A DNA stretch of 64,000 nt from Arenicellales bacterium (GTDB lineage: Bacteria > Pseudomonadota > Gammaproteobacteria > Arenicellales > Poriferihabitantaceae): NCBI GenBank assembly GCA_965116595.1, contig OZ220708.1, positions 1,460,596-1,524,595 on the forward strand, read 5' to 3'. The notes under the pieces were generated by a model that was not told the origin of the DNA, made no database searches, and was given only the letters and a program-made list of their open reading frames with translations. A program made the position numbers and the translations under genes. Shown piece after piece: positions 8,621 to 40,405 of this stretch. Numbering within the stretch: the stretch's first letter is position 1; every line of letters starts with the position of its first letter.

Positions 8621-9700
8621 TTATTCCTGAGTGGGGCTCATCTCCAAGAGCACTTCTCTGGCGCCCAGACAGCCGTATATCGGATATTCATCGCGAAGAT
8701 CGGTCAAATTCATATATGCGTGGAGAGAAAACTCATTCTCATCATCAGAACCAGTTTGGTTTTTAACGAATACTCCGTACCGCAGCCCATCCGTCAAGAT
8801 TATTCGCTGGCAATTTTCGTAACTTTTTGCATAGTATGCAGCTTGCGACAAAGCGGACAAAGATGCGGAATGTATCTTCTTGGCTTCAACGACAACGGAC
8901 AAATATTTCTTATCGCGACGAACACCGGAGAACAACGCAACATCAATATTGTTCCATTCGATGGCCATCTTTTGTGGGGTCCAGCCGAGAGCGCGAAGAA
9001 GCGGTACGACGAGATAGCTTACTGTCTCATGCTCAGAGGGAGCTTCTCCCGAACGATCATACCACTTTGCGATGCGGGTCAGTTCGCCCATTTCATCAAG
9101 TAAATTTGAAATTGAGTTGCTAGCCATTCCTGCATCGAATAGTTTTTCCGATATGCTTTCTAAGCTAATTTCGGCACTGTCGTTCTCCTCAGGGAGAGGA
9201 GGCAGAGAACGATCATAATCATTACTAGTTATATCTAAGGATTTTAACCATGATTTCACTTCTTCGGAATCAAGCTTCTGAGTCGTGTCGCCCAGCTTTA
9301 GCGTATACGTATCGAATGTTTTAGGTTTCCCACTGTTCCGGTCGGTATACTTCCAGAGCCAACGAACGCGCCACACATGGCCGATGTCCCATCCATCTAC
9401 ATCATTAAAGCATGGGTTCCACTGATATTCATCAACCATGTGACCCACCCCATAAACAGAATTTGTCCCCATTCGCAAGACAACGATATCGCCATTAGAC
9501 ATTTCTTCGCAAAATCGGCGTAGACCCGTGATCTTTCTTTCTGTCCATTTATCATGTCTGAGTTGTTTCTCGCAGTCTGGCCAAGCCCCCTCTTTTGCGG
9601 GACCATTCAGAACTACATCCCACTTCAGGCACAGATCCACGTAATTGCGATTAGTGTCACCGGCAGCATGCTGCCAGATTGTTTTGTTATCAATATTCAT
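8621..9700 (-). CDS. Putative restriction-endonuclease-like protein: unknown N-terminal domain + HsdR_N-like PD-(D/E)xK C-terminal domain
   Basis: 359 aa in an AT-rich islet. The C-terminus 'ETVSYLVVPLLRALGW...IDVALF...YLSVVVEAKK' fits the type I restriction HsdR N-terminal nuclease pattern (D...E-x-K). The N-terminal ~150 aa ('GDIVVLRMGTNSVYGVGHM...WDIGHVWRVRW') is unassigned. Confidence 0.5.
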   Translation of the reverse strand: MNIDNKTIWQHAAGDTNRNYVDLCLKWDVVLNGPAKEGAWPDCEKQLRHDKWTERKITGLRRFCEEMSNGDIVVLRMGTNSVYGVGHMVDEYQWNPCFNDVDGWDIGHVWRVRWLWKYTDRNSGKPKTFDTYTLKLGDTTQKLDSEEVKSWLKSLDITSNDYDRSLPPLPEENDSAEISLESISEKLFDAGMASNSISNLLDEMGELTRIAKWYDRSGEAPSEHETVSYLVVPLLRALGWTPQKMAIEWNNIDVALFSGVRRDKKYLSVVVEAKKIHSASLSALSQAAYYAKSYENCQRIILTDGLRYGVFVKNQTGSDDENEFSLHAYMNLTDLRDEYPIYGCLGAREVLLEMSPTQE

Positions 9701-22990: not shown

Positions 22991-23000
22991 CCTTCAAGCC

Positions 23001-23130
23001 GCCGCCGTGGGCAGCCACAGGGGGATTGCCCCTATGATCAAGGGAGCGGGGATTGATCATCAACCGTATCCGCCATCATCCACCGCCGCGGGCAACCACG
23101 GGAGTGTCTCGGAAGGCCCTTATGCGGATG
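23001..23130. repeat. Two REP-like GC-rich elements (family copies)
   Basis: 'gccgccgtgggcagccacagggggattgcccctatgatcaagggagcgggg' and 'ccgccgcgggcaaccacgggagtgtctcggaaggcccttatgcgg'. Same family as 17881-17925. Confidence 0.55.
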
Positions 23131-23382: not shown

Positions 23383-23631
23383 CTAACTAAGACGTCGTAT
23401 GAACCATCGACCATACTTTCGATTGGGGCGCTGCTCCTGGCCTTGAATGAGCTCTCTTCGAAGTAGATTTCTTAATGGCCGACCAGGTCTGTGGGGGTCA
23501 TCGCGCAGCAACCCGGCTTCATCAAGCCAACAGGCCGCATCAACCGCACTGACTTCTATCCACCCTCCATCCCTTAAGGCGTGTTTGCAGGTGGCAATTG
23601 ATGGCATGGTAATTGGACATGGGTAACTCAA
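23383..23631 (-). CDS. Hypothetical small protein (possible wHTH), last gene of the Dam/DGQHR operon
   Basis: 82 aa, 55 nt downstream of the 456-aa gene on the same strand. Basic C-terminus 'RPLRNLLRRELIQGQEQRPNRKYGRWFIRRL'. Confidence 0.4.
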   Translation of the reverse strand: MSYPCPITMPSIATCKHALRDGGWIEVSAVDAACWLDEAGLLRDDPHRPGRPLRNLLRRELIQGQEQRPNRKYGRWFIRRLS

Positions 23632-23686
23632 TGTGAAGGCTTATTGATCAAGAAGACATTACGGAATCGGAAGTGGAAATGCGACT

Positions 23687-25057
23687 TCAAACACCCCAAA
23701 GAAATATACGTTCCGATGTTGTCAGAAACGCCGCCGGAGCGGCAGATTCAGAATTAGCAAACCACAAAGAGTGATGACAATCAGGGTCGTTTGGTGGCTG
23801 AGTCGATTGTTGTACATCTACTAAAGCCTCGCTGACATCCTGCCAGAGGTCGGCAAAATTATCAGGGGCATTATTCTTGGGCCAAAGACGTCTGCGAATG
23901 GCAGTATCCATCCACCAAAATTCTAAATCTTTGTGCAAATCAGTTCCGCTTTCGTTTAACAAGTTTGAAAGCGACCCTGTCGCGACACGGAGCAAAAGCG
24001 TGGCTCTGGCCAAAACCTGTTGTGAATGATTGAGATGTGTCGGTTGGTCAGTACGACCTGCTGCCAACAGCAGTTCAGGTTTATTTTCGTCAGTTTCAAA
24101 TTCAAGAAACATCTTTAGTCTTCTTGCTTCCGAATCAGGCAACGATTGAGTATTTACCAGATTGGAAATTTGATGCCTGTACTTGCGTCTCGCTTGTTTC
24201 GGGGATCGTCCAGTCATGTTTGTAAAGAGCATCTCAACGGCTAAGCGAAGAAGGTGAAGATCTAAGGATGAAAATCCGCCGTGAGCATCTGGGCTACATA
24301 TTTCCCAAAGTTCCGTTACAGTCTTCACTGTTTCTGCGATTGGTCGTGGACCGGACGAGACAAAGGCCGAAGGCCGATAGCTGACGAGATTTCTCGCGTT
24401 TTTATCATCTGTCAAACGAGAAAGATCAAGCCCCCATGTTTTCAACCACTCGTCTGCCACAAATCCTGGGCTACCACCGAAATGGTCCAACCAGTCCTTA
24501 AGTGTAATGCCGGCAGGTCGTATTGCCTTGAAAAGCGTCGCAGAGCTTTTAGACAAACCAGCCCAACATTCCAGAGCTTGCCAAGTCAGTACATGCGTTC
24601 GTTCGCTGAGTAACGATCGACACTTTTGATTCTCCATGACGACGATGTGGTCGTGGTTAAAGATGCCAACACCTTCGCCTGCCATAATGGAAAAAGCCGC
24701 TCGCAATTCGGCGTAATACCCGAGATGGCGCGCAGTATCAGGGTCGCCGGACATTTCCGCCTCCAGAGCCCGCGCAAGAAATGACCAGCCGTCATAACAA
24801 TGCACAATCGCGGAACCAGCCACATATTCGATAAGTTCGGAATGTATGAATTGATCATGGTTTTTGCTATCCGCACTAATCTTCTTCGCTGCATCATGGA
24901 GATATCGATTAGACTTGGGTAGCCATTCACTGTCGTTGCGCCATTGTTTTTGAAGTCGGGACATCGCTTCTTGTATTTGCGACCGACTTGCTTCTATCAA
25001 GCCCCTCTCAATTTTATTCGCCTTCTCAATTTCTTTCTGTTGGTTTCTTGAAGTCAT
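23687..25057 (-). CDS. Hypothetical 456-aa protein, translationally coupled to the DGQHR protein
   Basis: Long uninterrupted ORF in AT-rich DNA. Its start overlaps the stop of the upstream gene by 1 nt at 25057. I can assign no motif. Confidence 0.6.
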   Translation of the reverse strand: MTSRNQQKEIEKANKIERGLIEASRSQIQEAMSRLQKQWRNDSEWLPKSNRYLHDAAKKISADSKNHDQFIHSELIEYVAGSAIVHCYDGWSFLARALEAEMSGDPDTARHLGYYAELRAAFSIMAGEGVGIFNHDHIVVMENQKCRSLLSERTHVLTWQALECWAGLSKSSATLFKAIRPAGITLKDWLDHFGGSPGFVADEWLKTWGLDLSRLTDDKNARNLVSYRPSAFVSSGPRPIAETVKTVTELWEICSPDAHGGFSSLDLHLLRLAVEMLFTNMTGRSPKQARRKYRHQISNLVNTQSLPDSEARRLKMFLEFETDENKPELLLAAGRTDQPTHLNHSQQVLARATLLLRVATGSLSNLLNESGTDLHKDLEFWWMDTAIRRRLWPKNNAPDNFADLWQDVSEALVDVQQSTQPPNDPDCHHSLWFANSESAAPAAFLTTSERIFLWGV

Positions 25058-26598
25058 CAGACGTAATTTAGTGCCTGCTGTACACTCTCTGCGGTTTCCT
25101 TCAACAAGCTGTCGTCACAGTTTGTTATATGGCTTAGCACATGTTTGCGCAGTTCCTTGTATCCACCGCTGCCCCTGAACGAGGCCTTCAATGTTCTTAC
25201 GTCGTCATTCAGGCCCGATGCATTGGATGCGCGCCAATCGTATGTGGCCAATACAGCGGCAAGCCTGGTCATGAATTCGGAAACCTCAGAATTTGCTCTC
25301 AATGAATTGATAGCTGATGCGATGCGCGGATCGTGCTCATCATCATTCTCTTCTTCCTGATTGTCCGCTCCCCAAAAGGAAATAAGGTTTAAGTCATCTG
25401 CATTCTGGAAGAAAAAGTCGTTGACGATCTGTAAAAGCGTACGAATTCCCTGGTCTTGGTTTAAGAGGTTGTTGGGACCAAAAAAGGCAGGGTCAGGTTG
25501 GTTTTCACTTCTCTTGCCTCTTAAAGATTGAGCCCACTCACCCTCTGTATCTTTTATGGCTTGTTGAATATCTTGTCCCATAAAGATCAAAAAGGCTGCC
25601 TGTTCCGAAAGACCCCAGGCCAAAACCATCTTGTCGTCTCCCACCTTGGATCCGAAAATGCCTCCGATACGTATTCTCTGTCCCTCCCAACTCTTCACGA
25701 AGGAATATATAAGAGATCGGACCCAGGAAGATTGGTTTACCATTAATCCTTTGCTGCCGGTCTCCCCGAGCATGTTGATGCGGTGATACCAAGGGCTCTC
25801 AGGGTATGACCATAGTTTGTCAACCAATTCTTGTGATCGGATTTCCCGGTAGATGGCATGTCCTTCGAACTTCTCCAACCATTTTTCTGTTCTGAGAAGG
25901 GGATACAAATCAAAGGCTAAACTCGCATTTATTTTTTTCGGTTTTATGTTAATCGTGTAAAACAAATAAGCCTGCCAGCTAAGGTCGAGACCTATGAAAG
26001 CGACAACTGGCAACTCATACTCCCCGTGCAAATCAGCATCATCGAACGCCCATAGCCGATGTTGACCGTCAATGACTTCGATGGGATGAAGTGTCTCAGG
26101 CTTCCAGCTCTCATCGGTAAATCCTTGAGGGAGAAATAACGTAGCGATATCATTCTCACCATCCTGAATTTCGATCAGGTCGGAGCCAACAATCTGTTTC
26201 TGACCTCTGTTATCTCCCGAAACGAGTATGTTCACGACAATGGACGTAGGTAGCCACCCCGGCTGCCTGAGATCATTAAATTCTCTGGTTTTCCTCTTGG
26301 CTTGGCTTAAGCTGGACCATGGGTAGCCGTACCTGACGAACTCTCCGATTTCTCTGGAACGTTGTTTGTTCAGTTGTCTTTGGATTCCAAGATCGTCTGT
26401 CGAATTAGCTCTGTCTGTGGTACGGGCGTATACGCCACTCAGTTTTCGCAGGGATCTCGCCGACAATTTGAACTGATAAAACCAGTGTGGAGGCTCGCTC
26501 CGATGTTCGGTCGGATCCCAGTGGATATCGTCCCATTCGGAAGCCCACTGTTTTACCTTCAGCGCATGAATTTGCCTCGGTGGGTTTATTGCAACCAT
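25057..26598 (-). CDS. DGQHR-domain protein (DndB-like, ParB/Srx superfamily)
   Basis: 513 aa. The literal motif 'IEVIDGQHRLWAF', preceded by 'REIGEFVRYG...LPTSIVVNI' as in DndB-like proteins. Strong SD 'aaggag' 7 nt upstream of the ATG. Confidence 0.8.
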   Translation of the reverse strand: MVAINPPRQIHALKVKQWASEWDDIHWDPTEHRSEPPHWFYQFKLSARSLRKLSGVYARTTDRANSTDDLGIQRQLNKQRSREIGEFVRYGYPWSSLSQAKRKTREFNDLRQPGWLPTSIVVNILVSGDNRGQKQIVGSDLIEIQDGENDIATLFLPQGFTDESWKPETLHPIEVIDGQHRLWAFDDADLHGEYELPVVAFIGLDLSWQAYLFYTINIKPKKINASLAFDLYPLLRTEKWLEKFEGHAIYREIRSQELVDKLWSYPESPWYHRINMLGETGSKGLMVNQSSWVRSLIYSFVKSWEGQRIRIGGIFGSKVGDDKMVLAWGLSEQAAFLIFMGQDIQQAIKDTEGEWAQSLRGKRSENQPDPAFFGPNNLLNQDQGIRTLLQIVNDFFFQNADDLNLISFWGADNQEEENDDEHDPRIASAINSLRANSEVSEFMTRLAAVLATYDWRASNASGLNDDVRTLKASFRGSGGYKELRKHVLSHITNCDDSLLKETAESVQQALNYV

Positions 26599-26680
26599 CT
26601 AATTTCTCCTTGTAAAAATAGTTGGATTCAGTATCTGGACATCTCATCTGGCTCCACCAATGCCGGACAACGAATGCGTA

Positions 26681-27487
26681 TTAGTCGGTAACAAGCAACT
26701 CAGTTGTTTGTGATCGGTGAATTGATCGTGCAGCAATCACGCTATGTCGTTCCAAGCTCTGGTGTTTTCCAAATCCCGCATACAACTCCCTCACACTTTC
26801 GTGGTCGGCGTTTGTCATTGCAAATGATGCCCCACGCTCTATAGCACGTTTTAGAGCATTGCACAGTCGAATCTGATCCTTCCAGGCAAAGATATTCTGG
26901 TTATACTGCACGAAGCCGTTCATATTGTGTCGTACGGTGTAAGGCGGGTCAACAAAAACAAAGTCACCCTCTTCCATCTCATTGATAGCTTCCTCGAAAT
27001 CAATACATTCAATTCGGGTATTGGCTAATGAACGTGACCAAACCTGAAAGTCATCATCCTCGAATATGACGGTCTGCTTCTTTCCTATTGGGACATTGAA
27101 TTGACCTTTGAGATTCTCCCGGTAGAGACCATTCCAGCAAGTCCGGTTGAGATACAGGAATTGTGCAGCTCTTGCGGCAGGCTTTCTAAAGTTCTGCTTC
27201 CGCAACTCGTAGTAGTAGTCCTTGGAATGACATAGAGCGTGCTTTCTAAGCAAATCTTCAAATTTCCCCGGTTCATCGCGGATAACGACATACAGTTCAA
27301 TCAGTCGTTTGTTCGAGTCGCTCAGAATGGCATTCTTGGGCTGGGTTTTGAAGAATACTGCTCCACCACCCAGAAACGGTTCAAAATATCGCCCCATGAA
27401 GTCAGGCAAGGTAAATTGTCCGCTCTGTAAAAGCCAACGCTTTCCACCGGCCCATTTCAAGAATGGTTTTAATGGCTTCGTCATCAT
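26681..27487 (-). CDS. Dam-like N6-adenine DNA methyltransferase (D12 class)
   Basis: 268 aa. 'FLKWAGGKRWLL', AdoMet motif 'FEPFLGGGAVFF', catalytic 'FVDPPYTV'. Confidence 0.85.
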   Translation of the reverse strand: MMTKPLKPFLKWAGGKRWLLQSGQFTLPDFMGRYFEPFLGGGAVFFKTQPKNAILSDSNKRLIELYVVIRDEPGKFEDLLRKHALCHSKDYYYELRKQNFRKPAARAAQFLYLNRTCWNGLYRENLKGQFNVPIGKKQTVIFEDDDFQVWSRSLANTRIECIDFEEAINEMEEGDFVFVDPPYTVRHNMNGFVQYNQNIFAWKDQIRLCNALKRAIERGASFAMTNADHESVRELYAGFGKHQSLERHSVIAARSIHRSQTTELLVTD

Positions 27488-27569: not shown

Positions 27570-28181
27570 TTATGGCGCGACTCCTATCAGGACAAGTGGC
27601 ACGGCCGGCACCCCACGACCTTGCCGTATTACATTCAGAAGGTCGCGCTCATAATATGGTACGCCGCTGGACATTTCCTGTTCCAACGTCTTCATTGGCA
27701 GGATTTCAATTCCAACATCAATGATATCGGAAATATAGAAACTGAGGTGCTTGACGAACAGGTCATGCGCCACGAATGCATACTTTCCGAACTGAACTTC
27801 AACGGCCACCCGGTCCTTCACGAAATCAGTTTGGTTATAGGACATGATCGGTGTATGTCCGGCAGCCTTGATCGCTTCCCTTTGTTCCTGTTCCGAAAGG
27901 TTATAGATGCCGCGAAGTACTTTTTCGTCAGCAGTAACCCAGAATTGGTTACGACGCTCCATCCATCCGGTGTGCCCGAAACCATCTGCGAAGGCTTTGT
28001 TCATATCCTTTGGGGAAAAGAACAGCCTGCCTCCCGTTCTTTGCTCTTTGGAAACTTTGGTTTTGCACGCATAAGCATCCACAGTGGAAATTACATCAAG
28101 CACCTCGTCCCATAGTTCTTTCTTGTGAACGATCAGGTATTCCTCACCATTCAGGTGGGAATATCGTGCTGCAATTTTCAT
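27570..28181 (-). CDS. Type II restriction endonuclease, BglII/BstYI family
   Basis: 203 aa. 'DFVKDRVAVEVQFGKYAF' has the same D-x8-E-x-Q spacing as the BglII block 'DFGKRDTLVEVQFSNYPF'. It also has 'VGIEILP' and a C-terminal 'PLVLIGV'. Confidence 0.8.
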   Translation of the reverse strand: MKIAARYSHLNGEEYLIVHKKELWDEVLDVISTVDAYACKTKVSKEQRTGGRLFFSPKDMNKAFADGFGHTGWMERRNQFWVTADEKVLRGIYNLSEQEQREAIKAAGHTPIMSYNQTDFVKDRVAVEVQFGKYAFVAHDLFVKHLSFYISDIIDVGIEILPMKTLEQEMSSGVPYYERDLLNVIRQGRGVPAVPLVLIGVAP

Positions 28182-29062
28182 CAGTGCCCGCCTTTTGGCA
28201 AAGAGGGGTCGTAAATCGGCTTTCCCATCGGTCTTGTCTTCAGGCTTCCATCGAGCAACTGATCAATCCGGTTATGGGCAATCGAAATGTATTCTTCCAC
28301 AATATCGCACCCATACGCGCCGCGTCCGTGCTTCAGGGCGGCAATCGCCGCAGACCCGACACCAATATATGGATCGAACACCGCATCCCCTTCATCGGTC
28401 ATCGACAGAATCAAGCGTTCCACCAGTTCTACCGGGAACTGGCATGGGTGGATCGTCTTTTCAGGGTGATTGCTCTTCACGTTCGGAAACATCCAGACAT
28501 CACTCGGATTCTTCCCGTTAGGGTTGCAAGACAGCTTGCCGGCATTTGGTCCCTTGAAGTGTCTTTTCCCAGGATACTTCGACGGAACCCGAATCGGGTC
28601 AAGATTCCATGTGTAGTTGTCGCTCTTTGTCCACCAGTTGATCGTTTCGTAGCGACCAGACAGACGCCTGGTGCAGTGCAGCCCATGACCGAAATGCCAT
28701 ACTATGCGGTTGCGAAGCTTCAGACCGTGAGATGCGAAAACGGGATAGAGCAGCACATCCAGCGGCACAATCTCTCCGTTGTCCACATGGTTCCCTACCT
28801 GCCAACAAATTGACCCCTGATCGTGCAGAAGACGTACGCACTCGGCAATCACTCTTGTCTGCCCGTCGATATATTCATCCGTGGACAGACGCTTCTTCTC
28901 ATAGGTTTTGCCAAGATTGTATGGCGGCGAAGTGACTATCAGCTTGAACAGGCCATCCGGCAGGTTGGACATGAATTGCAGATTGTCACGGCATTCCATG
29001 ACGATTTCGGTCAAATCGGATTGGACAGCCAAAGCAGAGACAGTTTTTGGCATTCTACTCAT
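28181..29062 (-). CDS. DNA methyltransferase, beta-class N4-cytosine/N6-adenine (cognate of the BglII-like enzyme)
   Basis: 293 aa. The catalytic motif 'IVTSPPYNLGK' precedes the AdoMet motif 'VFDPYIGVGSAAIAA' (beta order). 1-nt overlap with the endonuclease gene. Confidence 0.85.
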   Translation of the reverse strand: MSRMPKTVSALAVQSDLTEIVMECRDNLQFMSNLPDGLFKLIVTSPPYNLGKTYEKKRLSTDEYIDGQTRVIAECVRLLHDQGSICWQVGNHVDNGEIVPLDVLLYPVFASHGLKLRNRIVWHFGHGLHCTRRLSGRYETINWWTKSDNYTWNLDPIRVPSKYPGKRHFKGPNAGKLSCNPNGKNPSDVWMFPNVKSNHPEKTIHPCQFPVELVERLILSMTDEGDAVFDPYIGVGSAAIAALKHGRGAYGCDIVEEYISIAHNRIDQLLDGSLKTRPMGKPIYDPSLPKGGH

Positions 29063-29289
29063 CTCCCCGTATTGTTGTCTGATATTTGCCCGGTCTCATA
29101 CCTGATTTCTTCAATGTCAAACAGGGAGTCCTGCACTGTCACCCGGTTCTCCTCTATATAGTCTCGCATGAATTCGCGCAACACTTGTGCCGCAGGCCTG
29201 TCCTGAGCGCGACAAACCGTCAGAAAGCGTTCGTGCAAACTGCTCTCGATACGAATCCGGAATCCTGCGTCTTTCCTCGGCATACTCAT
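29059..29289 (-). CDS. Ribbon-helix-helix (CopG/Arc-like) protein, possible controller of the R-M operon
   Basis: 'FRIRIESSLHERFLTVCRAQDRPAAQVLREFMRDYI' is an RHH pattern. 4-nt overlap with the methylase gene. The ATG at 29289 or 29283 is preferred over the GTG in the track. Confidence 0.55.
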   Translation of the reverse strand: MSMPRKDAGFRIRIESSLHERFLTVCRAQDRPAAQVLREFMRDYIEENRVTVQDSLFDIEEIRYETGQISDNNTGR

Positions 29290-29290
29290 A

Positions 29291-29311
29291 GTGTACACGA
29301 TGGATGTACAT
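29291..29311. promoter_or_regulatory. Twin 8-bp palindromes upstream of the RHH gene (candidate operator)
   Basis: 'GTGTACAC' (29291-29298) and 'ATGTACAT' (29304-29311) are each self-complementary and are separated by 5 nt. Confidence 0.3.
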
Positions 29312-29455: not shown

Positions 29456-30433
29456 CTATAGATGCCTCACGGTATATTTGTCTCCCAACAGCCGTATCAA
29501 TGCCTCTGACACGCAATGCCGGTGACACTGACCGGGCAGATGCTCATAACAGGTCAGCGCCACCCGCTTGCCCCTCACCACCCAATCGGAGATAATTCCG
29601 AGCGCTTCAGTCTGCCGGGGCAAAACATCCTGTTCATACTGCTCGAATAACCGGTCGTAGGATGCCTGTGTGGAAAGGTCTTTCCTCAGCCTGGAATCAA
29701 TACCTAGTTCAGGGATGTGCTCGTAGCGGACGCCCACGCCTTGGCAGCCCCTGGCCAGAGTGTTTTTCGAAAAGCCATACTTCCGGCTCAGGGCATTACG
29801 CCGCACATCGCAGAGTAAGGACACCCCATCTTCCAGCAGAATATTGAGATAAGCCTCCAGCGTGCGGCCTTCGTAACCGATGGTGACAATCCCCGGTTTG
29901 TCTTTCGGGGGGCGGGCTATCCAGATTTTTCTTATTGCCTTTGCATCGTCGCTTAGAACTTTTTCGACAATCTGGCTTTGAATACCGTAATAGGGATAGC
30001 GGCGATAGGTTTCTGCAATCAGGGCATTACCACGCAGGCGGCGGTATTGCTTAACGAAACTACGGATTGCGTCAGAGCTGGTACTTGTCGTCTCCGCAAT
30101 CTCATGGCCAGCAGCCGTCAATTCCCACGTTTCGTTGTCATCCGTTAACGGGTTTCGCTCCATCAACTTGCGGCGATCGGCGTAAGAAGTGAACGAAAAA
30201 GCCCCAAAACGGTAAGGAATAAATTCGTAACTCGGTTCTGCCTCAAATTCCCGGCAATAGAGGAACAGGAGTTTCTGGAAATCCAGATTGTTCACTTTGC
30301 CACCCAGTTCATTCAATAGGGCGACAAGAACTTTCTGGCGATTGAACAGGGAGTGATTAGTCTTCATTTCCATATTGTAACTTTTAACGAAGGCATGTTC
30401 GGCCAGGGCCTGATCGTATCCCGTCAGTTCCAT
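29456..30433 (-). CDS. DUF488-domain protein with ~170-aa N-terminal extension
   Basis: The C-terminal half 'IVTIGYEGRTLEAYLNILLEDGVSLLCDVRRNALSRKYGFSKNTL...VALTCYEHLPGQCHRHCVSEAL' is the DUF488 pattern. The N-terminal part ('LDFQKLLFLYCRE...IPYRFGAFSF') is reminiscent of DUF4065/SocA-like antitoxin domains. The ATG at 30433 is preferred. Confidence 0.6.
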   Translation of the reverse strand: MELTGYDQALAEHAFVKSYNMEMKTNHSLFNRQKVLVALLNELGGKVNNLDFQKLLFLYCREFEAEPSYEFIPYRFGAFSFTSYADRRKLMERNPLTDDNETWELTAAGHEIAETTSTSSDAIRSFVKQYRRLRGNALIAETYRRYPYYGIQSQIVEKVLSDDAKAIRKIWIARPPKDKPGIVTIGYEGRTLEAYLNILLEDGVSLLCDVRRNALSRKYGFSKNTLARGCQGVGVRYEHIPELGIDSRLRKDLSTQASYDRLFEQYEQDVLPRQTEALGIISDWVVRGKRVALTCYEHLPGQCHRHCVSEALIRLLGDKYTVRHL

Positions 30434-30768
30434 GCGGACCAAACCACCTTATTAAAAGTCGGCCATAACAATAGGGCTATTCATCCACAAATCCGTTAAT
30501 ATGCACAGGTCGCACAAAATCCGAATATTTCATCACGAATCCGAATTGTAGCCAGTAAAACCACTTCCAATTCGCGGCCTACCTAGACTACAATCTCCTC
30601 GCCTTGATACAGACCGCCCTCAAGGGAAGAGCCATTTCAAAAGGAACCAATGCAGGCTTATGCGCCCGACTCAAGCCCTGATCGGAAACGCAGTCCCCTG
30701 AATTTACAGATTCCGAGCTATTAAAACGGATATAGTACAGATCATCCATATAGAAAATAAGAAAACAG

Positions 30769-30921: not shown

Positions 30922-33900
30922 ATGTCACAGCAGATCGCCCCTTGGATTGAGGGATTCCTCGAACATCGTAATCTGGACGGTCCTGACGGACGCGCGCTCT
31001 ATGCGTACCGGTGTTCAAAAGAGGAATTCGACTCGCTTGCGAGCTTGCTCACGCATTGCCCTTCATACAACCGAACGGCCAACACTCCGGCCAGGGCCTT
31101 TGTCCTTTACGCGTCGGAGTGGTGGCAGCGTGAATACGACGGCGGTACCTGGGCTTGGGAGCCTCTCCTTGAGACTATCGGTTGGGAAGCCGTCCATTAT
31201 CCAGACTTATACGAGCCCGTGAAGCAGGCATGGACCTGGTGGAAAGTCGACCTCGTACGCCTCCCGACATCGATTCGATACCTCGGTACATTCGCCTGTC
31301 ATGGTGGCCTGCCCCTCGCCCTTCTGGGCGATACCCACAGCAGCGTCACGCGGTACCTCCGCGCGGTTCTCAAGCACATTGCCGACTTCCGACAGTTCGT
31401 CGACGATCCCATCGTTCTTGCTCAAGACCAACAACATCTCCTTCGGCCACCAACGTTGCGCCGTGACTACGTGTTTCGACTCGGTGCTGATTTGGTCGAA
31501 GCGGTACTCGAACTTCAAGACGACGCGCAGGGCGACGACCCCATTGGTACTCTCAACAATGCGCGTCCTGACTGGGAACGGACGATGCCGCTCGCGCTTG
31601 ACGACCAGCGTGCACAGGAATTGTTGACAAGCCTGCTTCGTGAAGCCGTTCGGAACCAAGCAGAGCCTGTAGTTGAATTCCGCGTTGAACGATTTCTGCG
31701 CCAAACGGGTAAGGGATGGCGATTGGGCGCAAGGATAAGGCTACCCGCGACCGTTTCGGCCGATTCACTTGCGCGTCAACTGAGGGTTCGTGTGAACGAT
31801 ATTCCAGCGCGGCTCCAAGTGCGCACGTATGGTGATGACTCACGGGCGATAGGCCTCTACGCCCAACAGGGTGACCAATTCGTGCTTCTTCGGGACGCAC
31901 GGTCTTCTACGGAATTGTGGGATATAGAAGCTGTCGGAGAGATTCGTGTCGAGTTCCATTCGGGAGGTGTAGTGGGCGAACCGATGCTTCCCGGACGCGG
32001 TAGTATCTTGGGCGAACTTCCATGGTCCTTTAGCGGAACCGACGACAATTCGTTCATCGGCGAGGGCAGCGTCGCAAGCCGCGCATCACGGATCTTCGTC
32101 TTGGTTCCCGATGGATATACGCCAGACCAAGGACAGGTGCTGACCTCTTCGGGGGGAGGTGAATTCGAAGTGTCCGACAAATCGACTTCGTTGCCGGTGC
32201 GGATTCTAGGCAGAGATCTTTGGGTGATCTCCAAGGAAACTACTATAGAAACAGAAAGTGGACGCTGTGTGATTCGTACGACTTCGGGGCACACGGCCAA
32301 CGAGGAATACAGATTATCGGGTTCGCGATTCTACGAGTTGGAATGCGCTTGGCCGTTGTTTCGGGGTCAGCCACGACTATACCTCGAAAGGTCAGAGCAG
32401 CCACCACGTCGCATTCCGGCCAAGGACGTGGAGTGGCGGCAGGGAGGAGGTGAGTGGCTTCCGGAACCTACAGGTCCTGGGTTGTGGGCAGCGCGGCACC
32501 TACGGTCAGGTGAGCTTCGTTTCTTCGGCCGAATGGGTATTCTTCCCAGCCGGTTCTCGTTCTCAATCAAACCCGGTTCGGACATCAGCCAAGGAGACTT
32601 CATATTGAACGACGCGGACTCCGTACGAGTGGCGGGAAGCAACGCAGACACCGTAGTATCAGCGGAAACAGCAGGCAACGCAGTTCGAGTGAAGGTGAAA
32701 GCCATGGATGCCAACAGCCCGCCCGTGCATGTGCGTCTACAATTGCATTGGCCTGGTTCTCAAAAGCTAAACGTTGAGGCACCCTTTCCCGGATTTGGGG
32801 GGCGGTTCATCCGCGAAGGCAGTCTCATCAACCATGACCTTGCCGTAGACGATCTGTATGGTATCCGCGCGATAGCGCTCTCGCCGCACGAAACGCAAGA
32901 ATTTTGGGTGGAAGGAGAACTCAAAGCACCCGATGCGGGTCGAATATTTCGTATTGCGTACTTCCGTGAGAAATTGCGCAATTCCGGGGTGACGCACGAA
33001 CTCCCGATTAGCGAAGTACGCCGAATGATCGACTTACTGCTTTCCGCGTCTTCATCTACAGATGCGCATGTTATCCTTCAGATCGTGGACCGACACAGAA
33101 ATGTACACGTAACGGTTCGGGTAAGACGATTCTCGGTGACGCTCAAATGCAACCCCGAGTTGAAACTGGTTTCCGTCTCTCCATCTCTCGACGGACGGAG
33201 CACACCCACATTTGAAGCGTATCCGCTCATCCGCCCAGGAGGTGATCCCATTACGCTTGAGTCTGTTGGTCCCGCCGAGGCTCCGTACGGGGCACTTCTG
33301 CCACAATGCCTGGATCGAGCCGAACCTTGGCTCATCGTGATGCGTCACGACGACCAGATTCGAGCACGTCCTTGCAGGATAGGTAATTCAAGTTCCCCAT
33401 CCACGCATGTTGGTTCCAACGGCGGCAATACTCAGTCGCTCGCCGAAGCATTGGCTGTCGAAGACGAGGAACTACGAATTCGGGACCTCGAAGCCGCAAT
33501 TGACAGGATACTTGGCAAGGAGGGTACGAAAAGCAACGAGGCAGAGTGGTCTTTTCTGACCAATTCTATTCTAGGAGTGGAAGGTTTGCCGGCGAGCGTC
33601 CTTGACCTCTTCAGAGTGTTGGTGAAGAAGCCAAAGTTCCTGGTCCGAAGCCTGTTTAGACTCGAGAGGGGTCCTCGCAAGCAAATTTGGCGCCTGGAAG
33701 ACGAGCTTCCGTTCAGTTGGCTCCTCGTAAGGCGTGAGGTCTGGTGGACTGAGGCCCTCAGAACAATCCAATGGTTACGAGAGCGACTCACGGGCGTCGT
33801 AGACAATCCCAGCCAAATTGCCCAGGAACATGTGGCATTGATCCTCGCGGAAGGCGCCGAACGACTTCCAGCTCTCCAGACAATAGCTACCGACGTCGCT

Positions 33901-34281
33901 CTGCGATTGGAAGGTGCGGGACTGAGTCAGGAGTTTGTTGAGGCTGTGCAGGGAGAACGAGACAACAAAACTCCCGGACAGATCAGTCTCAGAAGCAGCC
34001 TGGACGACTGGCCCAAAGGGTACGACCGCAAAGAGTGGGAGGACGAACTCGGCACGTTTCCGAAGAGCCTGTGTCAACACGCGGACGAACATCGTGCTCG
34101 GCAACCAATTTTTGACACTCCCGTGGCTGCCGCGTGGTGCTGTTTCAAAGGGGAGTCGACCGAGCGCACGACTTTTCTCGTTAAGCGCATCCGCGCGCAT
34201 GATCGTGAATGGTTTGATTTGGCGTACAGTACGACGTGGTTCAGACTCGCGCACATACAAGACAAAATGACGGAAAGGTAA
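30922..34281 (+). CDS. druH: Large uncharacterised protein, DruH-like partner of the DUF1998 helicase (Druantia type III-like)
   Basis: 1119-aa uninterrupted ORF with no recognisable catalytic motif. Its stop overlaps the ATG of the giant helicase gene by 1 nt (taATG). The assignment rests on size and gene context only. Confidence 0.5.
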   Translation: MSQQIAPWIEGFLEHRNLDGPDGRALYAYRCSKEEFDSLASLLTHCPSYNRTANTPARAFVLYASEWWQREYDGGTWAWEPLLETIGWEAVHYPDLYEPVKQAWTWWKVDLVRLPTSIRYLGTFACHGGLPLALLGDTHSSVTRYLRAVLKHIADFRQFVDDPIVLAQDQQHLLRPPTLRRDYVFRLGADLVEAVLELQDDAQGDDPIGTLNNARPDWERTMPLALDDQRAQELLTSLLREAVRNQAEPVVEFRVERFLRQTGKGWRLGARIRLPATVSADSLARQLRVRVNDIPARLQVRTYGDDSRAIGLYAQQGDQFVLLRDARSSTELWDIEAVGEIRVEFHSGGVVGEPMLPGRGSILGELPWSFSGTDDNSFIGEGSVASRASRIFVLVPDGYTPDQGQVLTSSGGGEFEVSDKSTSLPVRILGRDLWVISKETTIETESGRCVIRTTSGHTANEEYRLSGSRFYELECAWPLFRGQPRLYLERSEQPPRRIPAKDVEWRQGGGEWLPEPTGPGLWAARHLRSGELRFFGRMGILPSRFSFSIKPGSDISQGDFILNDADSVRVAGSNADTVVSAETAGNAVRVKVKAMDANSPPVHVRLQLHWPGSQKLNVEAPFPGFGGRFIREGSLINHDLAVDDLYGIRAIALSPHETQEFWVEGELKAPDAGRIFRIAYFREKLRNSGVTHELPISEVRRMIDLLLSASSSTDAHVILQIVDRHRNVHVTVRVRRFSVTLKCNPELKLVSVSPSLDGRSTPTFEAYPLIRPGGDPITLESVGPAEAPYGALLPQCLDRAEPWLIVMRHDDQIRARPCRIGNSSSPSTHVGSNGGNTQSLAEALAVEDEELRIRDLEAAIDRILGKEGTKSNEAEWSFLTNSILGVEGLPASVLDLFRVLVKKPKFLVRSLFRLERGPRKQIWRLEDELPFSWLLVRREVWWTEALRTIQWLRERLTGVVDNPSQIAQEHVALILAEGAERLPALQTIATDVALRLEGAGLSQEFVEAVQGERDNKTPGQISLRSSLDDWPKGYDRKEWEDELGTFPKSLCQHADEHRARQPIFDTPVAAAWCCFKGESTERTTFLVKRIRAHDREWFDLAYSTTWFRLAHIQDKMTER

Positions 34282-37200
34282 TGACTTCCACGGTCAGCAT
34301 TTCGAGCCTCATTCAGGACCTATCCACCCGTTCGGGCCGGGCCATTCTCTCCCAGCTTGGGCTTCGCTCTCCCGCGCTTCGCGAGTACTTAGGGAAGCTG
34401 TATGCACGGAGACCAGGAGAGCCTGGATCCCTTCTCTCGGATCCCGTCGTGGAAGCCGCATTTGGTTGGAAGGTCGCAGAGATGGATATGCTTGGTTTGT
34501 CCAGAGCCGGACTTCTACGAGAAGAACTTGTGCGAGCGATGAACGAACCAGCGGGCGAACTCCGCAAGGACTACAGATTTCCCGCCAACCGGAAACCATT
34601 CCAGCATCAACTCGAATGCTGGCAGCATCTCCTCGATGAGGTGCCTCGGTCGGTCCTGGTCTCAAGCGGTACGGGCTCTGGAAAGACAGAGTGCTTTCTG
34701 GTGCCAATTTTAGAGGATCTTGCCCGAGAGAGCCAGCACCGGACCCCTTACGGGCGTTCGTGCACTGTTCCTCTACCCGCTGAACGCTCTCATCAATAGT
34801 CAGCGCGACCGGCTTCGCGCCTGGTGCAACGGTTTCGGCAACGACATCCGATTCTGTCTCTACAACGGAGAGACGGAAGAGACGGTCTCAGCAGACCGAC
34901 AGATTAGAGCGGGCGCCGAACAGATCGCGCGCAAGGTCTTGCGCGATAGTCCCGCACCAATCCTCGTCACAAACTCGACGATGCTGGAATACATGCTCGT
35001 CAGGACGGAAGACCGGCCGATTCTTGAACAATCCCGCCGGAAGCTTCGGTGGATCGTTCTTGACGAGGCGCATACCTACATCGGCTCTCAGGCGGCAGAG
35101 ATTGCCCTCCTTCTGAGGCGCGTTCTGCACCGCTTCGAAATGGATCCGATGGACGTACGGTTCGTGGCCACGTCAGCAACGATCGGGGGTGAGAACGCTA
35201 GGGAGGATTTACAACGCTTCTTGGCGGATGTCTCTGGTGCGAGTCCAGACCGTGTCCATGTCGTGACCGGTGATCGCTTCGTTCCGGAACTCCCGCCTCC
35301 AGCCGGGGAGCTGCTACTCGAAAGCCTGGAGGGGCTGGAATCTGAGCCGCTGTATACCGCCCTTTGCCATCACCCAGGTGCAAGGGCTCTCCGAAAACGG
35401 TTGGAAGCGGGACCTGCCACACTTAAGGTGTTGGGGGAAACGGCAGGGGTCGACAGCAAGGCGCTCACCTCGCTCCTTGAGAAGGCATCGACGGCACGCC
35501 GGGAAGACGAAGTATTTCTGCCCGTTCGCATGCACTTGTTTCATCGCACGCAACGGGGCTTGTGGGCGTGCGCGAATGCAAAGTGTAGCGGTCGGGACCC
35601 GAGCATTGCAGACCGATGGAACTTCGGCGCCATATTCCCGAGCCGTAGGACTCACTGCAACCACTGCAACTACCCTGTGTTCGAACTTATTGCATGCCGT
35701 GAATGCGGACAGGATTATCTCTCGGCCCAAGAGGAGTACTCAGCCGAGGCTGATGAACAAAAGCTGGTCCCATACATTGAAGTCGAGGACATTGATGAAT
35801 TTCAACTTGAAGTTGACCTCGATGATTCAGAAGAGGGAGAAGACGAGGCTACAGACCTATTTCGCTTCCGCCGACTTGTCTGCAGCTCCACTCTCACCGC
35901 AAGCGACCTCCAGGAAGTTTGCATCGACCAAGACAATTTAATTCGAAGAGACGGAGAAGGAGTCTCCATTCTTCATCTCTCCGATTGGGTCCGGGGCAAA
36001 TTCCTGCGTTCGCTGCGGTGCGACCAACAGCCCGCGTCGGCTGTTCCGTGAGCTTCGGATCGGTGCTCCATTTGCATTGTCCACAATCGTTCCGACGGCG
36101 CTCGAACACACGCCTTCTATGAAAGGTGGAGAAGCCCTACCAAGCCAAGGGAGACGGCTTCTCGGATTCAGCGATTCTCGACAAGGCTCCGCACGTCTGG
36201 CGGTCAGGCTTCAACAGGAGGCAGAACGGAACCGAATCAGGAGCATCCTTTACCACGCGCTCGCTTCTGGAAGAAAGATTTCGGACACGACAGAACTGGA
36301 GAAGCAGGTAGCCAAACTAAATGCACTCAACGACCCCACATTGCGCGGGATTCTGGTAGAGAAGCAAGCAGAGCTCTCCAGAGCTCTCGGAGAGAGTGGA
36401 CACGGGACGCTCTCGTGGAAGGACGCCATCGACGCACTGAAGGGTGACTCCAGCCTTCAGCATATGCGCAAGTACTTCCGCGAGACTGCTTACAGCAACA
36501 GAACCCCGGAAGAATTCGCACGTTTCTGCCTGTACCGCGAGTTCTTTCGCCGTCCGAAGCGGATGAACTCGGCTGAGACCATGGGCCTCATCTGCCTCCG
36601 GTACCCGGACCTGGAGGGCAAGCCGGTGCCAAGGGAGTGGACGCTCGACAAAGAAGATTGGACTGCTTTCCTCAAACTCATCGTCGACTTCTTCATCCGC
36701 GACGTGAGTGCTGTAAACGACGACGACGACTACCTATGGTGGATGGGGATACCCGTAAGGAAACGGTATGTGCAAGGACCCGGGTTCCGAGGGAAACCAA
36801 CCAGCCGTCAGAGACTCTGGCCTGCGGTTCGGCCCAGGACGAGACTCTCACGACTTCCACGCCTCTTGCAGGCAGCTGCTGGGTGGGACGACACACAGGC
36901 CACTATCGACAGGATCAACGAAGCGTTTGAATGCGCGTGGGAAGCCTTGAGACCACATCTCCAGCAGGCAGGGGACGGGTTTCTGCTCAAGCTGGATGAG
37001 GTCGCAGTACTAAGCGAACTCTCTTCCGGAGAGATCTGTCCCTACACTTCGCGTGTACTTGATACGACCCTGAGAGGCATCTCGCCTTACCTACCGGCAC
37101 GCGGAGCGCCGGAGCCGTGCATAAAGTTTTCACCACCACTGGTTCCCAAGCCCTACTGGCGCGACGAGTCAGGTAGAGTGAGCGACCGGGACGAAATTAC

Positions 37201-40200
37201 CGTCTGGTTGGAAACGGACAAGAAAGTCAAGAAGGTACGTAAGCTCGGGGTTTGGTCGAACCTCAATGACAGAGCTGCGGCTAATACACCCTACTTCGAA
37301 GCAGCGGAACACTCTGCGCAGATCGACGGGGGACGCCTCCGCGATCTCGAAACGCGGTTCAAGGACGGCAAGCTTAACGTACTCAGCTGCTCAACAACCA
37401 TGGAGATGGGGGTCGATATCGGAGGGCTCTCAGCAGTCATCATGAACAACACGCCCCCGAGCTCGGCAAACTATCTCCAGCGTGCCGGCCGCGCTGGGCG
37501 TCGCGGCGAAGGCGTTTCCTTTGCGGTCACTCTCTGCCCGAGCTCCCCACATGGTGAACAGGTGTTCGAGAATCCACTATGGCCCTTCACGTCGTCAATT
37601 GGCGCGCCGAAGGTGGGCTTGGACAGCGAGCGCCTAGTACAAAGACATGTGAATGCGCTTTGCCTGGGTACATTCCTCGACACGTACGACGTCCGGCGAC
37701 TCAGGACACGCTGGTTTTACGAAAGTGATGAAACAGGTACAAGTCCGGGGAGACAGTTCGTCGAGTGGTGCCGTCTCGAGGCAGAGGAAAACGATAGGCT
37801 TGTCTCGGGCATCAGGAATCTGGTTCATGGCACCACCGCAGATATGCGCTCGGTGTCCGGGCTTCTTGAACGCACCGCGAATGCACTGGACACAGCCATG
37901 GATGCGTGGCTATGTGAAGTCGAAGCCTTGCGAAAGGATGCGGAGCAGTTCGAAGCAGATGAAAAGACCCGTCCTCCCGCGCTCCTCGCGATCGAGCGCC
38001 AACTGCGGCGCCTTGAGGAGGAGTATCTCCTGAGTGAACTCGCGAACCGCCAGTTCCTTCCCGGCTATGGATTCCCCACTGGTGTCGTTAGCTTCATTCC
38101 GACGACGCTGGATGATCTCAGGCAGAGGAACAAGGATCGGGAGAGCCGAGAAGAAGCACTGGGCAAGAGGTTAGGCTACCCATCGCGCCAGTTGGAAATG
38201 GCAATTCGAGAGTACGCGCCAGGCGCTGAAATTGTGATGGACGGTCGCGTGTACCGCTCTTCAGGAGTCACACTAAATTGGCACATCCCGCCGGGGGTCG
38301 ATAACACGAACGAGGTACAGGCCCTTCGACATGTGTGGAGATGCCGAAAGTGTGGTATCACAGGTGATGCCATCGGGGAATCGCCAGAGAGGTGCCCGCA
38401 CTGTGAAGGCTCACTTGATAAGGTGAAATACCTCAAGCCAGCGGGATTTGCAGTCGATATTCGGGACCACCCGCACAACAATGTTGTCTCCCCCATGTTC
38501 ATACCGGTAGACCCGCCCTGGATCAGCTGTCCGACTCCTGATTGGACATCCTTTGCCAATCCGCAGATAGGTAGATTTCGGTACACCGACTCTGGGCACT
38601 TGTTTCATGGAAGTCGGGGTGTGACAGGCCACGGTTACGCCGTATGCCTCAGGTGCGGCCGGGCTACCTCGGAAGTGGGCCCCATGTTTGAAACCAAAGT
38701 ACCGGAAGCGGTTCAGGAAGGCCACACCCGCCTCAGAGGCGGAAAGAAGCGCGACGGCACCGATCTTTGCAATGAAACCGGTTTCGCGATCCAGCGGGGA
38801 CTCTCGCTCGGTGGGAGTCGCACAACTGATGTCTTCGAACTTCAGCTAGCAGGTCTGGTGGATTCCGGAGTTGCTCTCTCGGTAGGTATCGCTCTGCGGC
38901 GCGCGTTTTGCCAGCGCCTCGGGATTGAAGAACAGGAAGTGGGGGTTAGTGTGCGTCCCGCCAAGGGAGCAGACGAGTCTGTCCTTCAGTCCATTTTTCT
39001 CTACGATTCCGCAACTGGCGGAAACGGCTACGTCGCCGGGTTGTGTGATCACGTTGCCCAAGCACTACGGGAGTGTGTACTGGTCCTTGACTGTGCCAAG
39101 AACTGCGACGCTGCCTGCCACAGCTGCCTCCTCACCTTTGACACCCAGTACGATTCGGCCAAATTGGATCGACGCAAGGGTCTCGCGTTTCTCACAATAG
39201 AGCGCCTCGATGGGCTCGTGCTTCAAGAACATAACCGGATTCTAGGGGAGAACTCTCGGATACTCACACGCCCGTTGTACCGGCATTTGGCGGAGGTCTC
39301 GGCAGAGCCCGGCGTAGAGGAAGTCCGGATCTGGTTCGGTGACGAAGCCGACGTTTGGGATGTGGAAAACTTCCCCCTCTATCGACATTTTCTGCGTTGG
39401 GTAGATAACGGGCAACGCGTTCGCTTGTTTGTGACACCGGATACCTGGACTCGACTCAGCGATGGGAGCCGCCACGCTCTAGGTGGCTTGGTTACTGGGG
39501 GACAGGGAAACATAACAGTACATCGGGCAGAAGGGCCTACCACAGAATACGGCTGCGGGGCCCTAGTGGCCGCTGTGGGAGGACCAGAGAAATGTGTCAA
39601 TTGGGCCGTTCCTTGTAGACACTGGCCAGCAATGAACGAGGTGTGGGGACAACTCCCCGCGGGAGAAGTCTGCGTCTATGCACCACTTGACGAGCGACTG
39701 CCAGAGGTTCTAACTGCTGAGGTGACGAACAAAGAACTTCGCCCGCGACCCGAAGGTACCGAGGCAATCCTTCCGGTCCGGGATGAACTGAACGGCCGCA
39801 TAGAAGGGTTTGGTTCGCGATTCTGGACCCACGTGCTAGGCAAGTGCGGGGCACTTGAGAACGAATTCAAGCGACAAGGTACTCTGACGCGGGTGAGTTA
39901 TACCGACCGGTATATCGCAACACCCTGGGCCGTATTGCTGTTTCGGGAAATCCTGCTCGAACTGGTACGCGTTGGTCTCGTCGATACGGGTACCACGTTG
40001 CAGGTCCTCTCGAAGGACTTGAACAAACACTATCGTGTTGGGCGACCGGGCGGCTATATCACTGACTCGTTTCTGGACGAAGCAACGCGAAAGAGACTAT
40101 TCGAGACCGCATTCGAATCCGGACGAGGGAGCTTGTGCTGGAGTGGTCCGATCGAGTTCGAGACTGGACCCGCACCTCACTTCCGGGAGCTTGCGCTAGA

Positions 40201-40405
40201 GTGGGAGGACGGCGCCGCATGGTCACTGAAGCTTGATCAGGGGGTAGGCTACTGGCGTTGTCGTCCATCCGCCGAGTTCCCGTTTAACCGGGTTCCAGAT
40301 GAGCAGTTACGACGCATGAACGAAATCGCGAAGTGCCACCGCGTGGTGTCCCAAGGCATCTTCCCAACCTACATCTATGTTGCGAAGGGTACTGCCACGC
40401 AGTAG
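34281..40405 (+). pseudogene. druE: Giant DEAD/DEAH helicase fused to DUF1998 (DruE-like), split over three reading frames
   Basis: The segments are 34281-~34745, ~34745-~35990 and ~35990-40405. Motif I is 'SSGTGSGKTECFLVPIL', Ia is 'ALFLYPLNALINSQ', and II is 'IVLDEAHTY'. There are Zn-ribbons ('CSGRDP...CNHCNYP...CRECG', 'CVRCG'). Helicase-C is 'VLSCSTTMEMGVDIGGLSAVIMNNTPPSSANYLQRAGRAGRRG'. The DUF1998 cysteines are 'CRKCG...CPHCEG', 'CLRCGRA' and 'CAKNCDAACHSCLLTFDTQY'. Two +1 frame changes lie at a C4 run (34744-34747) and near a G4 run (~35992). Confidence 0.7.

Follow-up and report, generated by a model that had tools for sequence, protein, structure and literature searches.

What do a Dam-like methylase gene, a gene for a protein with a DGQHR motif and a gene for a large protein of no recognisable family do side by side on a conjugative element? 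The question is raised by contig OZ220708.1 of an Arenicellales bacterium (assembly GCA_965116595.1), of which a stretch of 64,000 nucleotides (nt; positions 1,460,596 to 1,524,595 of the forward strand), hereafter the window, was analyzed. An earlier note, made from the letters alone, had proposed an undescribed methylation-linked defence operon of four genes at window positions 23383-27487. The present analysis leans, by a modest measure, towards a methylation-linked defence cassette made of three of these genes: the methylase, the DGQHR gene and the gene of the 456-residue protein referred to as X, the DGQHR-X pair being the non-methylase, restriction-side unit. The cassette looks like an undescribed immune system of a restriction-modification (R-M)-like kind.

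Organization and conservation of the cassette

The four co-directional open reading frames (ORFs) of the earlier note are all found in the ORF list on the minus strand. They are the methylase gene (26681-27487), coding for 268 amino acids (aa) with a DPPY motif, the DGQHR gene (25057-26598), whose 513-aa product contains IEVIDGQHRLWAF, the gene of X (23687-25057, 456 aa) and an ORF of 82 aa with a TTG start (23383-23631). The methylase and DGQHR genes are separated by a spacer of 82 nt (26599-26680, minus strand), and a gap of the same length lies on the other side of the methylase gene. The spacer holds the Shine-Dalgarno sequence of the DGQHR gene, the strong 'aaggag' already remarked upon, 8 nt before the ATG. 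At the junction 'gtcTGATGact' a single A, at 25057, is common to the stop codon of the DGQHR gene and the start codon of X, the 1-nt overlap reported earlier being read there as 'TGATG'. No terminator-like site was found between the cassette genes in the window.

The conservation of this arrangement was followed from X. A word-indexed search returned 357 relatives, and an exhaustive profile search extended the family to 1,193 cluster representatives (clustering at 50% identity), of which 810 were matched at E<=1e-30. Gene contexts were taken from three metagenomic contigs, 51 GTDB loci (one genome per species) and a plasmid each of Zymomonas mobilis CP4 and Rhizobium tumorigenes, and all ORFs of these loci were scored by script with three profiles, one each for X, the DGQHR protein and D12 methylases. 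Among the 49 loci with a contig long enough to show what precedes X, 48 have the DGQHR gene directly upstream; the remaining one, L053, holds degraded copies. The junction is an overlap or a gap of at most 4 nt in the window and in loci L001, L002, L004, L056, L057, L058 and L061, and the two genes are translationally coupled.

An adenine methylase of the N6-methyladenine (m6A) type is adjacent to the pair in about 46 of 51 informative loci, and it belongs to the D12 class in 43 of them. The co-occurrence of the pair with a methylase, which the earlier note had left to be examined across genomes, is therefore the rule. The usual D12 partner has about 375-400 residues and lies downstream of X, often with a 4-nt overlap. 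The usual gene order is DGQHR-X-methyltransferase (MTase); the window Dam lies instead upstream and is one of several methylases that were swapped in. The short Dam type is the partner in Nitrospina, Rhodospirillaceae, Rhodobacteraceae, Reyranella (L049, upstream as in the window) and Zymomonas. Methylases of other classes are found in L028, L036 and L043, namely a gamma N6_Mtase with HSDR_N, a beta N6_N4 enzyme and an Eco57I/MmeI-like fusion. In a neighbour-joining tree of X the short-Dam partners occupy at least four separate positions among long-D12 partners; on this evidence the methylase has been replaced repeatedly around a stable DGQHR-X core.

Identity across phyla amounts to 55-65% for the DGQHR protein and 40-60% for X. 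The hosts span more than 12 bacterial phyla, with one Methanoregula metagenome-assembled genome (MAG) representing the archaea, and include the plasmids of Zymomonas and Rhizobium. Carriers belong to Binatia, Poribacteria, Planctomycetota, Verrucomicrobiota, Chloroflexota, Nitrospinota, Gemmatimonadota, Actinomycetota, Acidobacteriota, Bacteroidota, Armatimonadota and several proteobacterial classes. This wide distribution is horizontal. X and the window-type DGQHR protein are encoded by no phage record searched. Cultured carriers make the cassette directly testable: Z. mobilis CP4, R. tumorigenes 932, Curvibacter cyanobacteriorum HBC61, Limnohabitans sp. T6-5 and Nitrosomonas. The triad of Z. 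mobilis CP4 has the accessions WP_012954783/782/781.

The operon of four genes put forward earlier stands for the methylase, the DGQHR gene and X, which form the conserved unit, but not for the 82-aa ORF. The latter has no homologue in 55 distant loci and only two relatives in a protein database of 5.8 billion clusters. Its TTG start is not preceded by a Shine-Dalgarno sequence, and the frame is shifted in the sister strains L059 and L060 as well as in a co-existing metagenome variant (1-nt deletion at 23571). Judged from these features, it is a doubtful gene and not part of the conserved system.

The methylase

The 268-aa protein belongs to the D12/Dam family (Pfam PF02086, 4.6e-51; TIGR00571, 248.6 bits). 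With its DPPY motif and full-length family matches it is assigned to the D12 class of alpha-group N6-adenine DNA methyltransferases, and the site-specific DNA methyltransferase of a type II R-M system is thereby present in the window. Its nearest relatives in the PDB are the GATC methylases DpnM (3.2e-54) and Escherichia coli Dam, and the DNA-contacting segment 'NGL.R.N..G.FNVP.G' of the GATC enzymes is kept. Since the closest relatives, M.DpnII and E. coli Dam, are GATC enzymes, its product is probably Gm6ATC. The window Dam shares 48-55% identity with the Dam-type enzymes that accompany DGQHR-X in the Zymomonas, Reyranella, Nitrospina, Rhodobacteraceae and Rhodospirillaceae loci. It also matches PADLOC PD-Lambda-5_B (3.2e-10), far more weakly than the generic type II MTase models, and no match to PD-Lambda-5_A was found in the PADLOC scan. 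Reading the methylase motif from the published methylome of Zymomonas ZM4 (PMC8432527) was dropped, the plasmid deposited as 'ZM4 pZZM405' stemming from strain CP4 and its GenBank strain attribution being wrong (PMC5930841).

The DGQHR protein

The 513-aa protein scores 70.8 bits against the DGQHR domain model TIGR03187 (cutoff 58.85) over residues 40-291. Pfam DndB is matched just above its cutoff (29.8 versus 29.1 bits) over residues 40-228, corresponding to profile positions 13-159 of 338. The cutoffs of the equivalog models are far from being reached: DGQHR_dnd_1 (TIGR04172) gives 67.9 bits versus a cutoff of 450, and the DpdB model NF041060 gives 23.2 bits versus 300, with a PADLOC DpdB match of 1.7e-05 over 110 residues. 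No neighbour resembling a tRNA-guanine transglycosylase (DpdA) was found in the window scans. The protein is classed as a member of the DGQHR domain family and not as DndB, DpdB or a GmrSD/SspE-type protein.

In an alignment of 45 homologues, with a mean column identity of 58%, D177-G-Q-H-R181 is invariant. Residues ~37-290 make up a ParB/Srx-like N-terminal domain, putatively binding nucleoside triphosphate (NTP); the protein also has a Trp-rich N-terminal strand (invariant W18, W22 and W27). Residues ~325-513 form a C-terminal helical domain with the invariant motifs 'NxDQGxR', 'DWR' and 'FRGSGGY..LR....H' and the invariant residues R484 and H490. This domain and a 25-residue insert ('GYPWSDLS...RQPGW') are specific to the window-type family. 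The AlphaFold2 (AF2) model reached a predicted local distance difference test score (pLDDT) of 79 and a predicted template modelling score (pTM) of 0.75. No PDB match was obtained by sequence or fold; whole-chain Foldseek gave only insignificant armadillo-like matches, with SspE (6jiv) at rank 25 (E 1.1). The protein is proposed to be an NTP-gated sensor or switch, possibly a nickase.

R484 and H490 lie in a C-terminal helix as R484-x5-H490, a spacing that recalls the Rx4-6H motif of HEPN domains, and a HEPN motif was reported in DndB (Makarova et al., PMC3632139). A HEPN fold was accordingly considered for the C-terminal domain. It found no Pfam match even at E<=10 and no fold match, and hhalign aligned the protein to a DndB+HEPN_Swt1 protein of locus L027 over residues 37-283 only, i.e. 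the ParB-like part. The idea is kept as a lead only. The L027 protein is of interest in itself: in this Actinomycetota MAG a second DGQHR/DndB-like protein of 765 aa (6950-9247 of the locus) follows the methylase of the triad. It carries a weak C-terminal match to Swt1-like HEPN, and its homology to the window protein is confined to the ParB-like part.

The X protein

X could not be placed in any known family, in line with the earlier note, which had recognized no motif on the 456-aa or the 82-aa protein; neither protein matches Pfam, NCBIfam or PADLOC. For X, neither Pfam, searched with 48 members of the family at E<=5, nor the PDB sequences, compared with its profile, gave a match. Members of the family are labelled 'hypothetical protein' in RefSeq. 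The AF2 model, built with 48 homologues, is all-helical and of high quality (pLDDT 88.9, pTM 0.91), and Foldseek found nothing significant for it in the PDB (best E 0.45) or BFVD (best E 0.38). The best 150 of the 1,193 representatives are mostly about 445 aa long and match over one stretch each, with no domain fusions.

The family alignment shows invariant polar residues H86, D89, E101, H111, E117, R119 and H155, followed by D211, D218, R222, N223, S226, Y227 and R351. Such residues are a hint of enzymatic activity or of a precise binding surface, and X is proposed to act as an effector or co-subunit. An HD domain, an S1/P1 nuclease and a HEPN domain were considered on account of the invariant His, Asp and Glu residues and of 'R222-N-x-x-S-Y227', and were set aside when fold and profile searches gave nothing.

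A resemblance between X and its partner was also observed. Around residues 221-273 of X, 'LASYRP..PG...GGF..L.RHLL' recalls, in order and spacing, 'LATYDWRAS.PG...GGY.ELR.HVL' around residues 447-491 of the DGQHR protein; in each protein these are the motif blocks with the highest conservation. The hhalign comparison of X with the DGQHR C-terminus was not significant (P=0.009, probability 4%; reversed control 0.18). A shared ancestral domain was therefore not retained and is at most a hint.

Decay in sister strains and metagenome variants

The closest relatives of the locus, L058-L060, carry the same block in the order RHH-M.BglII-R.BglII-Dam-DGQHR-X, in which RHH stands for a ribbon-helix-helix protein. 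In L059 and L060, X bears a 1-nt deletion that shifts the frame, and the DGQHR gene, though free of frameshifting indels, is broken into two ORFs. The BglII R-M genes are intact in both strains; Dam is intact in L060 and called as 238 aa in L059. In L058 a rearrangement cuts X short at window position 24084. R-M systems lose their non-methylase genes first. The loss of the non-methylase genes first in the sister strains is the order expected if these genes are the costly 'restriction' side.

Short-read-derived contigs of four public metagenome runs reproduce the DGQHR, X and Dam genes over window positions 24124-26965, with zero differences in three of the four. In the fourth run there are two base differences, both inside the Dam gene, while X and DGQHR are identical. 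The type of the runs is unlisted, and the even contig coverage of the stretch is like that of metagenome DNA. Because these contigs reproduce the three genes, the intact cassette genes are not assembly artefacts. Two variants co-exist with the window sequence in the metagenome runs. At 22997-23098 all four runs hold a variant with a 36-nt stretch in place of 100 nt, and at 23520-23600 a second allele shows five substitutions and a 1-nt deletion. They indicate strain heterogeneity just downstream of the cassette.

Genomic neighbourhoods

In the window, the cassette is the neighbour of a BglII R-M system, a PDC-M19A candidate and a type III Druantia system, all on a conjugative element. Similar company is kept elsewhere. 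In Nitrosomonas (L061 and L062, 7001-11003), the triad is inserted into a type I R-M operon between hsdM-hsdS and hsdR; it follows hsdS, the stop of which is overlapped by the DGQHR start, and precedes a segment with DUF1016, a zeta-toxin-like gene and hsdR. The contig collection has 301 blocks with the Nitrosomonas cassette protein. In Zymomonas (L056, 9911-11634) a DarT/DarG-like pair of a DUF4433 gene and a macro-domain gene lies about 1.9 kb downstream of the triad, and in L004 a NotI R-M system lies directly beside the cassette. When 107 ORFs flanking the cassette in 45 loci were scanned with PADLOC, components of type I, III and IIG R-M systems were retrieved; the scan gives neither counts per gene nor a background and is no statistical test of enrichment. 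The pair is often found near defence genes, a point that the earlier note had put forward for testing.

Relation to known systems

The earlier statement that the locus matches no named system holds. As a system the cassette is absent from PADLOC-DB v2.0.0, Pfam (2025) and NCBIfam (June 2026), from which X is absent as a family too. Among the non-methylase components, PADLOC gives no match for X and only the weak DpdB match for the DGQHR protein. No description of the triad was found in a full-text literature search for DGQHR, DndB-like, PF14072 and related terms.

The cassette has the DGQHR domain and the association with a DNA-modifying enzyme in common with DndB and DpdB systems. It differs from them in that its loci have no dndACDE, dptFGH or dpdA/C and in that its equivalog scores are far below cutoff. 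Moreover, the DndB model aligns to the window protein with no more than its first half, and the window-type DGQHR family has an obligate partner of its own, X. The earlier note had seen none of the known DGQHR/DndB partners in the window, and scans of the window neighbours likewise gave no dnd, dpd or ssp gene. The dndCDE genes, sought along with dndA/iscS and dndFGH, are also absent among the called genes of L001, L002, L004 and L056-L062.

SspE, DndI, GmrSD and BrxU resemble the cassette in having a ParB/Srx N-terminal domain with D-G-Q-[QH]-R encoded beside DNA-marking genes. SspE and DndI, however, combine DUF262 (DGQQR) and a DUF1524 HNH domain in one chain and respond to phosphorothioate, whereas the cassette is of the DGQHR/DndB type, has no HNH domain, has a separate partner of novel fold in X and has a base methylation as its mark. 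No match to the DUF1524 His-Me/HNH domain was obtained with Pfam or PADLOC in the DGQHR protein, its isolated C-terminal domain or X, and sequence and fold searches did not link the cassette proteins to SspE, DndI or GmrSD.

The likeness to DpnII/MboI R-M systems lies in a stand-alone Dam-family methylase, closest to M.DpnII, beside would-be restriction genes, in horizontal mobility, in a methylase kept after partner loss and in a location in defence islands. Two differences set the cassette apart. Its restriction side consists of two large proteins, conserved across phyla, that have no known restriction endonuclease (REase) fold, and the class and position of the methylase vary around the same pair, unlike in cognate REase-MTase pairs. 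As proposed here, the cassette would discriminate self from non-self by methylation through a ParB-like protein, and what would be new is its effector or partner of unseen fold.

Proposed mechanism

A working scheme can be drawn from these data and from related systems. In SspE and DndI, the DUF262 domain is a ParB-like NTPase that responds to the phosphorothioate mark of the host and controls the HNH nickase fused to it (PMC11662687). Binding of ATP and GTP is described for a DndB-like protein (bioRxiv 10.1101/2025.10.10.680097), and PMC12839542 cites ATP-controlled nicking of DNA by some ParB/Srx proteins. By analogy, the adenine methylase, here of the Dam type and probably producing Gm6ATC, would mark the DNA of the host. 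The DGQHR protein and X, made at a fixed stoichiometry through translational coupling, would work as one complex. The ParB/Srx-type DGQHR domain would be an NTP-binding switch on DNA, its state set by the m6A mark of the host. On unmarked invading DNA, of a phage or plasmid for instance, the complex would damage or block the DNA, with an activity coming either from X and its invariant His, Asp, Glu and Arg residues or from the nicking known in some ParB/Srx proteins. What the data show is the anatomy and coupling of the genes, the strict pairing of DGQHR with X, the frequent but exchangeable methylase, the wide distribution without phages, the defence genes nearby and the decay in sister strains; the complex, its NTP gating, the reading of m6A, the subunit with the effector activity, DNA as the target and restriction of phages or plasmids are inferred.

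Because it combines strong conservation across phyla with tolerance of unrelated adenine methylases, the pair would have no sequence recognition of its own. It probably reads m6A generically or depends on the methylase in another way, and its conservation is more in keeping with the reading of a generic mark than with a sequence-specific REase. This specific NTP-gated, m6A-reading mechanism is less likely than the general defence claim and must be called doubtful. Equally speculative, and on balance unlikely, is a new class of restriction in which a ParB-fold NTP switch reads m6A, set by any associated adenine methylase, as a generic and largely sequence-independent self mark and licenses X, as a nuclease or other effector of new, all-helical fold, against unmarked DNA.

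Should the cassette restrict unmethylated DNA, a widespread immune system would be added to the catalogue, and the principle of a ParB-like NTPase sensing the host mark would be extended from phosphorothioate to adenine methylation. A function and a new effector fold would then be given to the large X family (~1,200 clusters at 50% identity), with a practical bearing on DNA transfer into Z. mobilis CP4, Nitrosomonas and R. tumorigenes. Dam-like methylases now annotated as orphans may have partners as well.

Alternative explanations

Several observations weigh against a defence function. No nuclease, HNH, PD-(D/E)xK, HEPN or HD domain was found in DGQHR or X by profile and fold searches, so that the cognate endonuclease of recognized nuclease fold that defines a type II R-M system was found in neither. 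Five to six loci have an intact DGQHR-X pair and no methylase within 8 kb, and several loci lie amid ordinary metabolic genes; with no background comparison, the neighbourhood evidence is anecdotal. For the m6A-reader idea the invariant Trp-rich N-terminus is only suggestive. In addition, the known functions of DGQHR proteins are not restriction: DndB, the founding member, is a transcriptional regulator of its modification operon (PMC4507180; PMC11662687), and DpdB, according to the summary in PMC12839542, is a DGQHR ATPase on which DpdA depends for inserting the base. Together with the missing nuclease domain, the precedent of DndB raises the possibility that the pair is an accessory or regulatory module for epigenetic control of the methylase, with DGQHR, by analogy, binding DNA and NTP to govern how the adjacent methylase is expressed or acts, and X as a co-factor; ParB-fold proteins are moreover often fused to methyltransferases (bioRxiv 10.1101/2025.10.10.680097). 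Yet about 960 residues of highly conserved protein go far beyond the needs of known R-M controllers, and a dedicated regulator would not be expected with non-homologous methylases and sometimes with none adjacent. The embedding of the pair in type I R-M and defence islands, and its loss in sister strains that kept the methylase, speak in the same sense and make a purely regulatory role rather improbable. The precedent of DpdB, to which the weak similarity (PADLOC 1.7e-05; NF041060, 23 bits) and the location of the window copy on a conjugative element may be added, suggests instead that the three genes build a complex, Dpd-like DNA modification, as a modification-only module shielding the mobile element from restriction. 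Such a dedicated multi-step pathway is hard to square with interchangeable methylase classes. Phages, the main users of anti-restriction hypermodification, have no copies, many copies are chromosomal, and X has no similarity to any known modification enzyme; the probability left to this explanation is small.

Two further readings accept the anatomy of the locus and dispute its purpose or its limits. The cassette could be above all a selfish addiction module, lethal once the methylase is lost and with little or no anti-phage role, as its patchy, horizontally transferred distribution, plasmids and conjugative element included, and the decay that sister strains show in the presumably toxic genes would allow. 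Addiction is, however, compatible with defence, since classical R-M systems do both, and the embedding in R-M and defence loci suggests selection for defence; addiction as the main role is accordingly given little credence. The other reading concerns the window only: the four ORFs would not form one operon, Dam would work with the BglII system, whose target AGATCT contains GATC, and DGQHR-X would be an MTase-independent pair. It draws on the inheritance of the RHH-to-X block as one piece in L058-L060, on the upstream position of the window Dam with its 82-nt gaps on both sides, and on the loci that have the pair alone. Against it, a related Dam (48-55% identity) flanks DGQHR-X in five distant loci with no BglII annotation, and in distant loci the triad is not accompanied by the BglII block; one of the five, Reyranella L049, also carries its Dam upstream, and the BglII system already owns an N4/N6 methylase. 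A split of the window locus along these lines is thus considered a slim prospect. The defence cassette of methylase, DGQHR and X is the reading retained.

Surroundings of the cassette in the window

The setting in AT-rich cargo of a conjugative element, as described earlier, is borne out. GC content is 45.5-51.7% over 23-31 kb of the window and 55-60% in the flanks, and a conjugation apparatus of the P type lies at 16.9-20.4 kb, with a VirB11-like ATPase, an IncP-TraG-like coupling protein and a TraF peptidase. No near-identical DNA was found in E. coli genomes or PLSDB plasmids.

Immediately upstream of the cassette lies the complete BglII-like R-M system of the earlier note, a separate type II module on the minus strand (27570-29298; Pfam and PADLOC). 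It codes for a 203-aa BglII-family REase (27570-28181, minus strand; Pfam Endonuc-BglII, 2.9e-34; PADLOC REase_II, 5.9e-84), a 293-aa N4/N6 MTase (28181-29062, minus strand; PADLOC N6_N4_Mtase, 2.8e-50) and a 79-aa RHH controller-like protein (29059-29298, minus strand). Between this module and Druantia is placed the PDC-M19A candidate defence protein of 328 aa (29456-30442, minus strand), a full-length PADLOC match (2.3e-103) with a C-terminal DUF488. PADLOC and profile scans show the DruH gene of the type III Druantia system to be intact (30922-34281). Its DruE helicase is split into two plus-strand ORFs (34720-36051 and 36077-40405), covering profile positions 149-563 and 610-2054 of 2055, which could reflect a frameshift, a pseudogene or an assembly error.

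Further along, within a low-GC patch of the element, lies a tRNA gene of 87 nt (42788-42874, minus strand) with a long variable arm and the anticodon UUA in the loop CUUUAAA. It is called tRNA-Stop by ARAGORN and scores 61 bits against the Rfam tRNA model. Judging from its anticodon, this tRNA would read the UAA stop codon, in the manner of an ochre suppressor.

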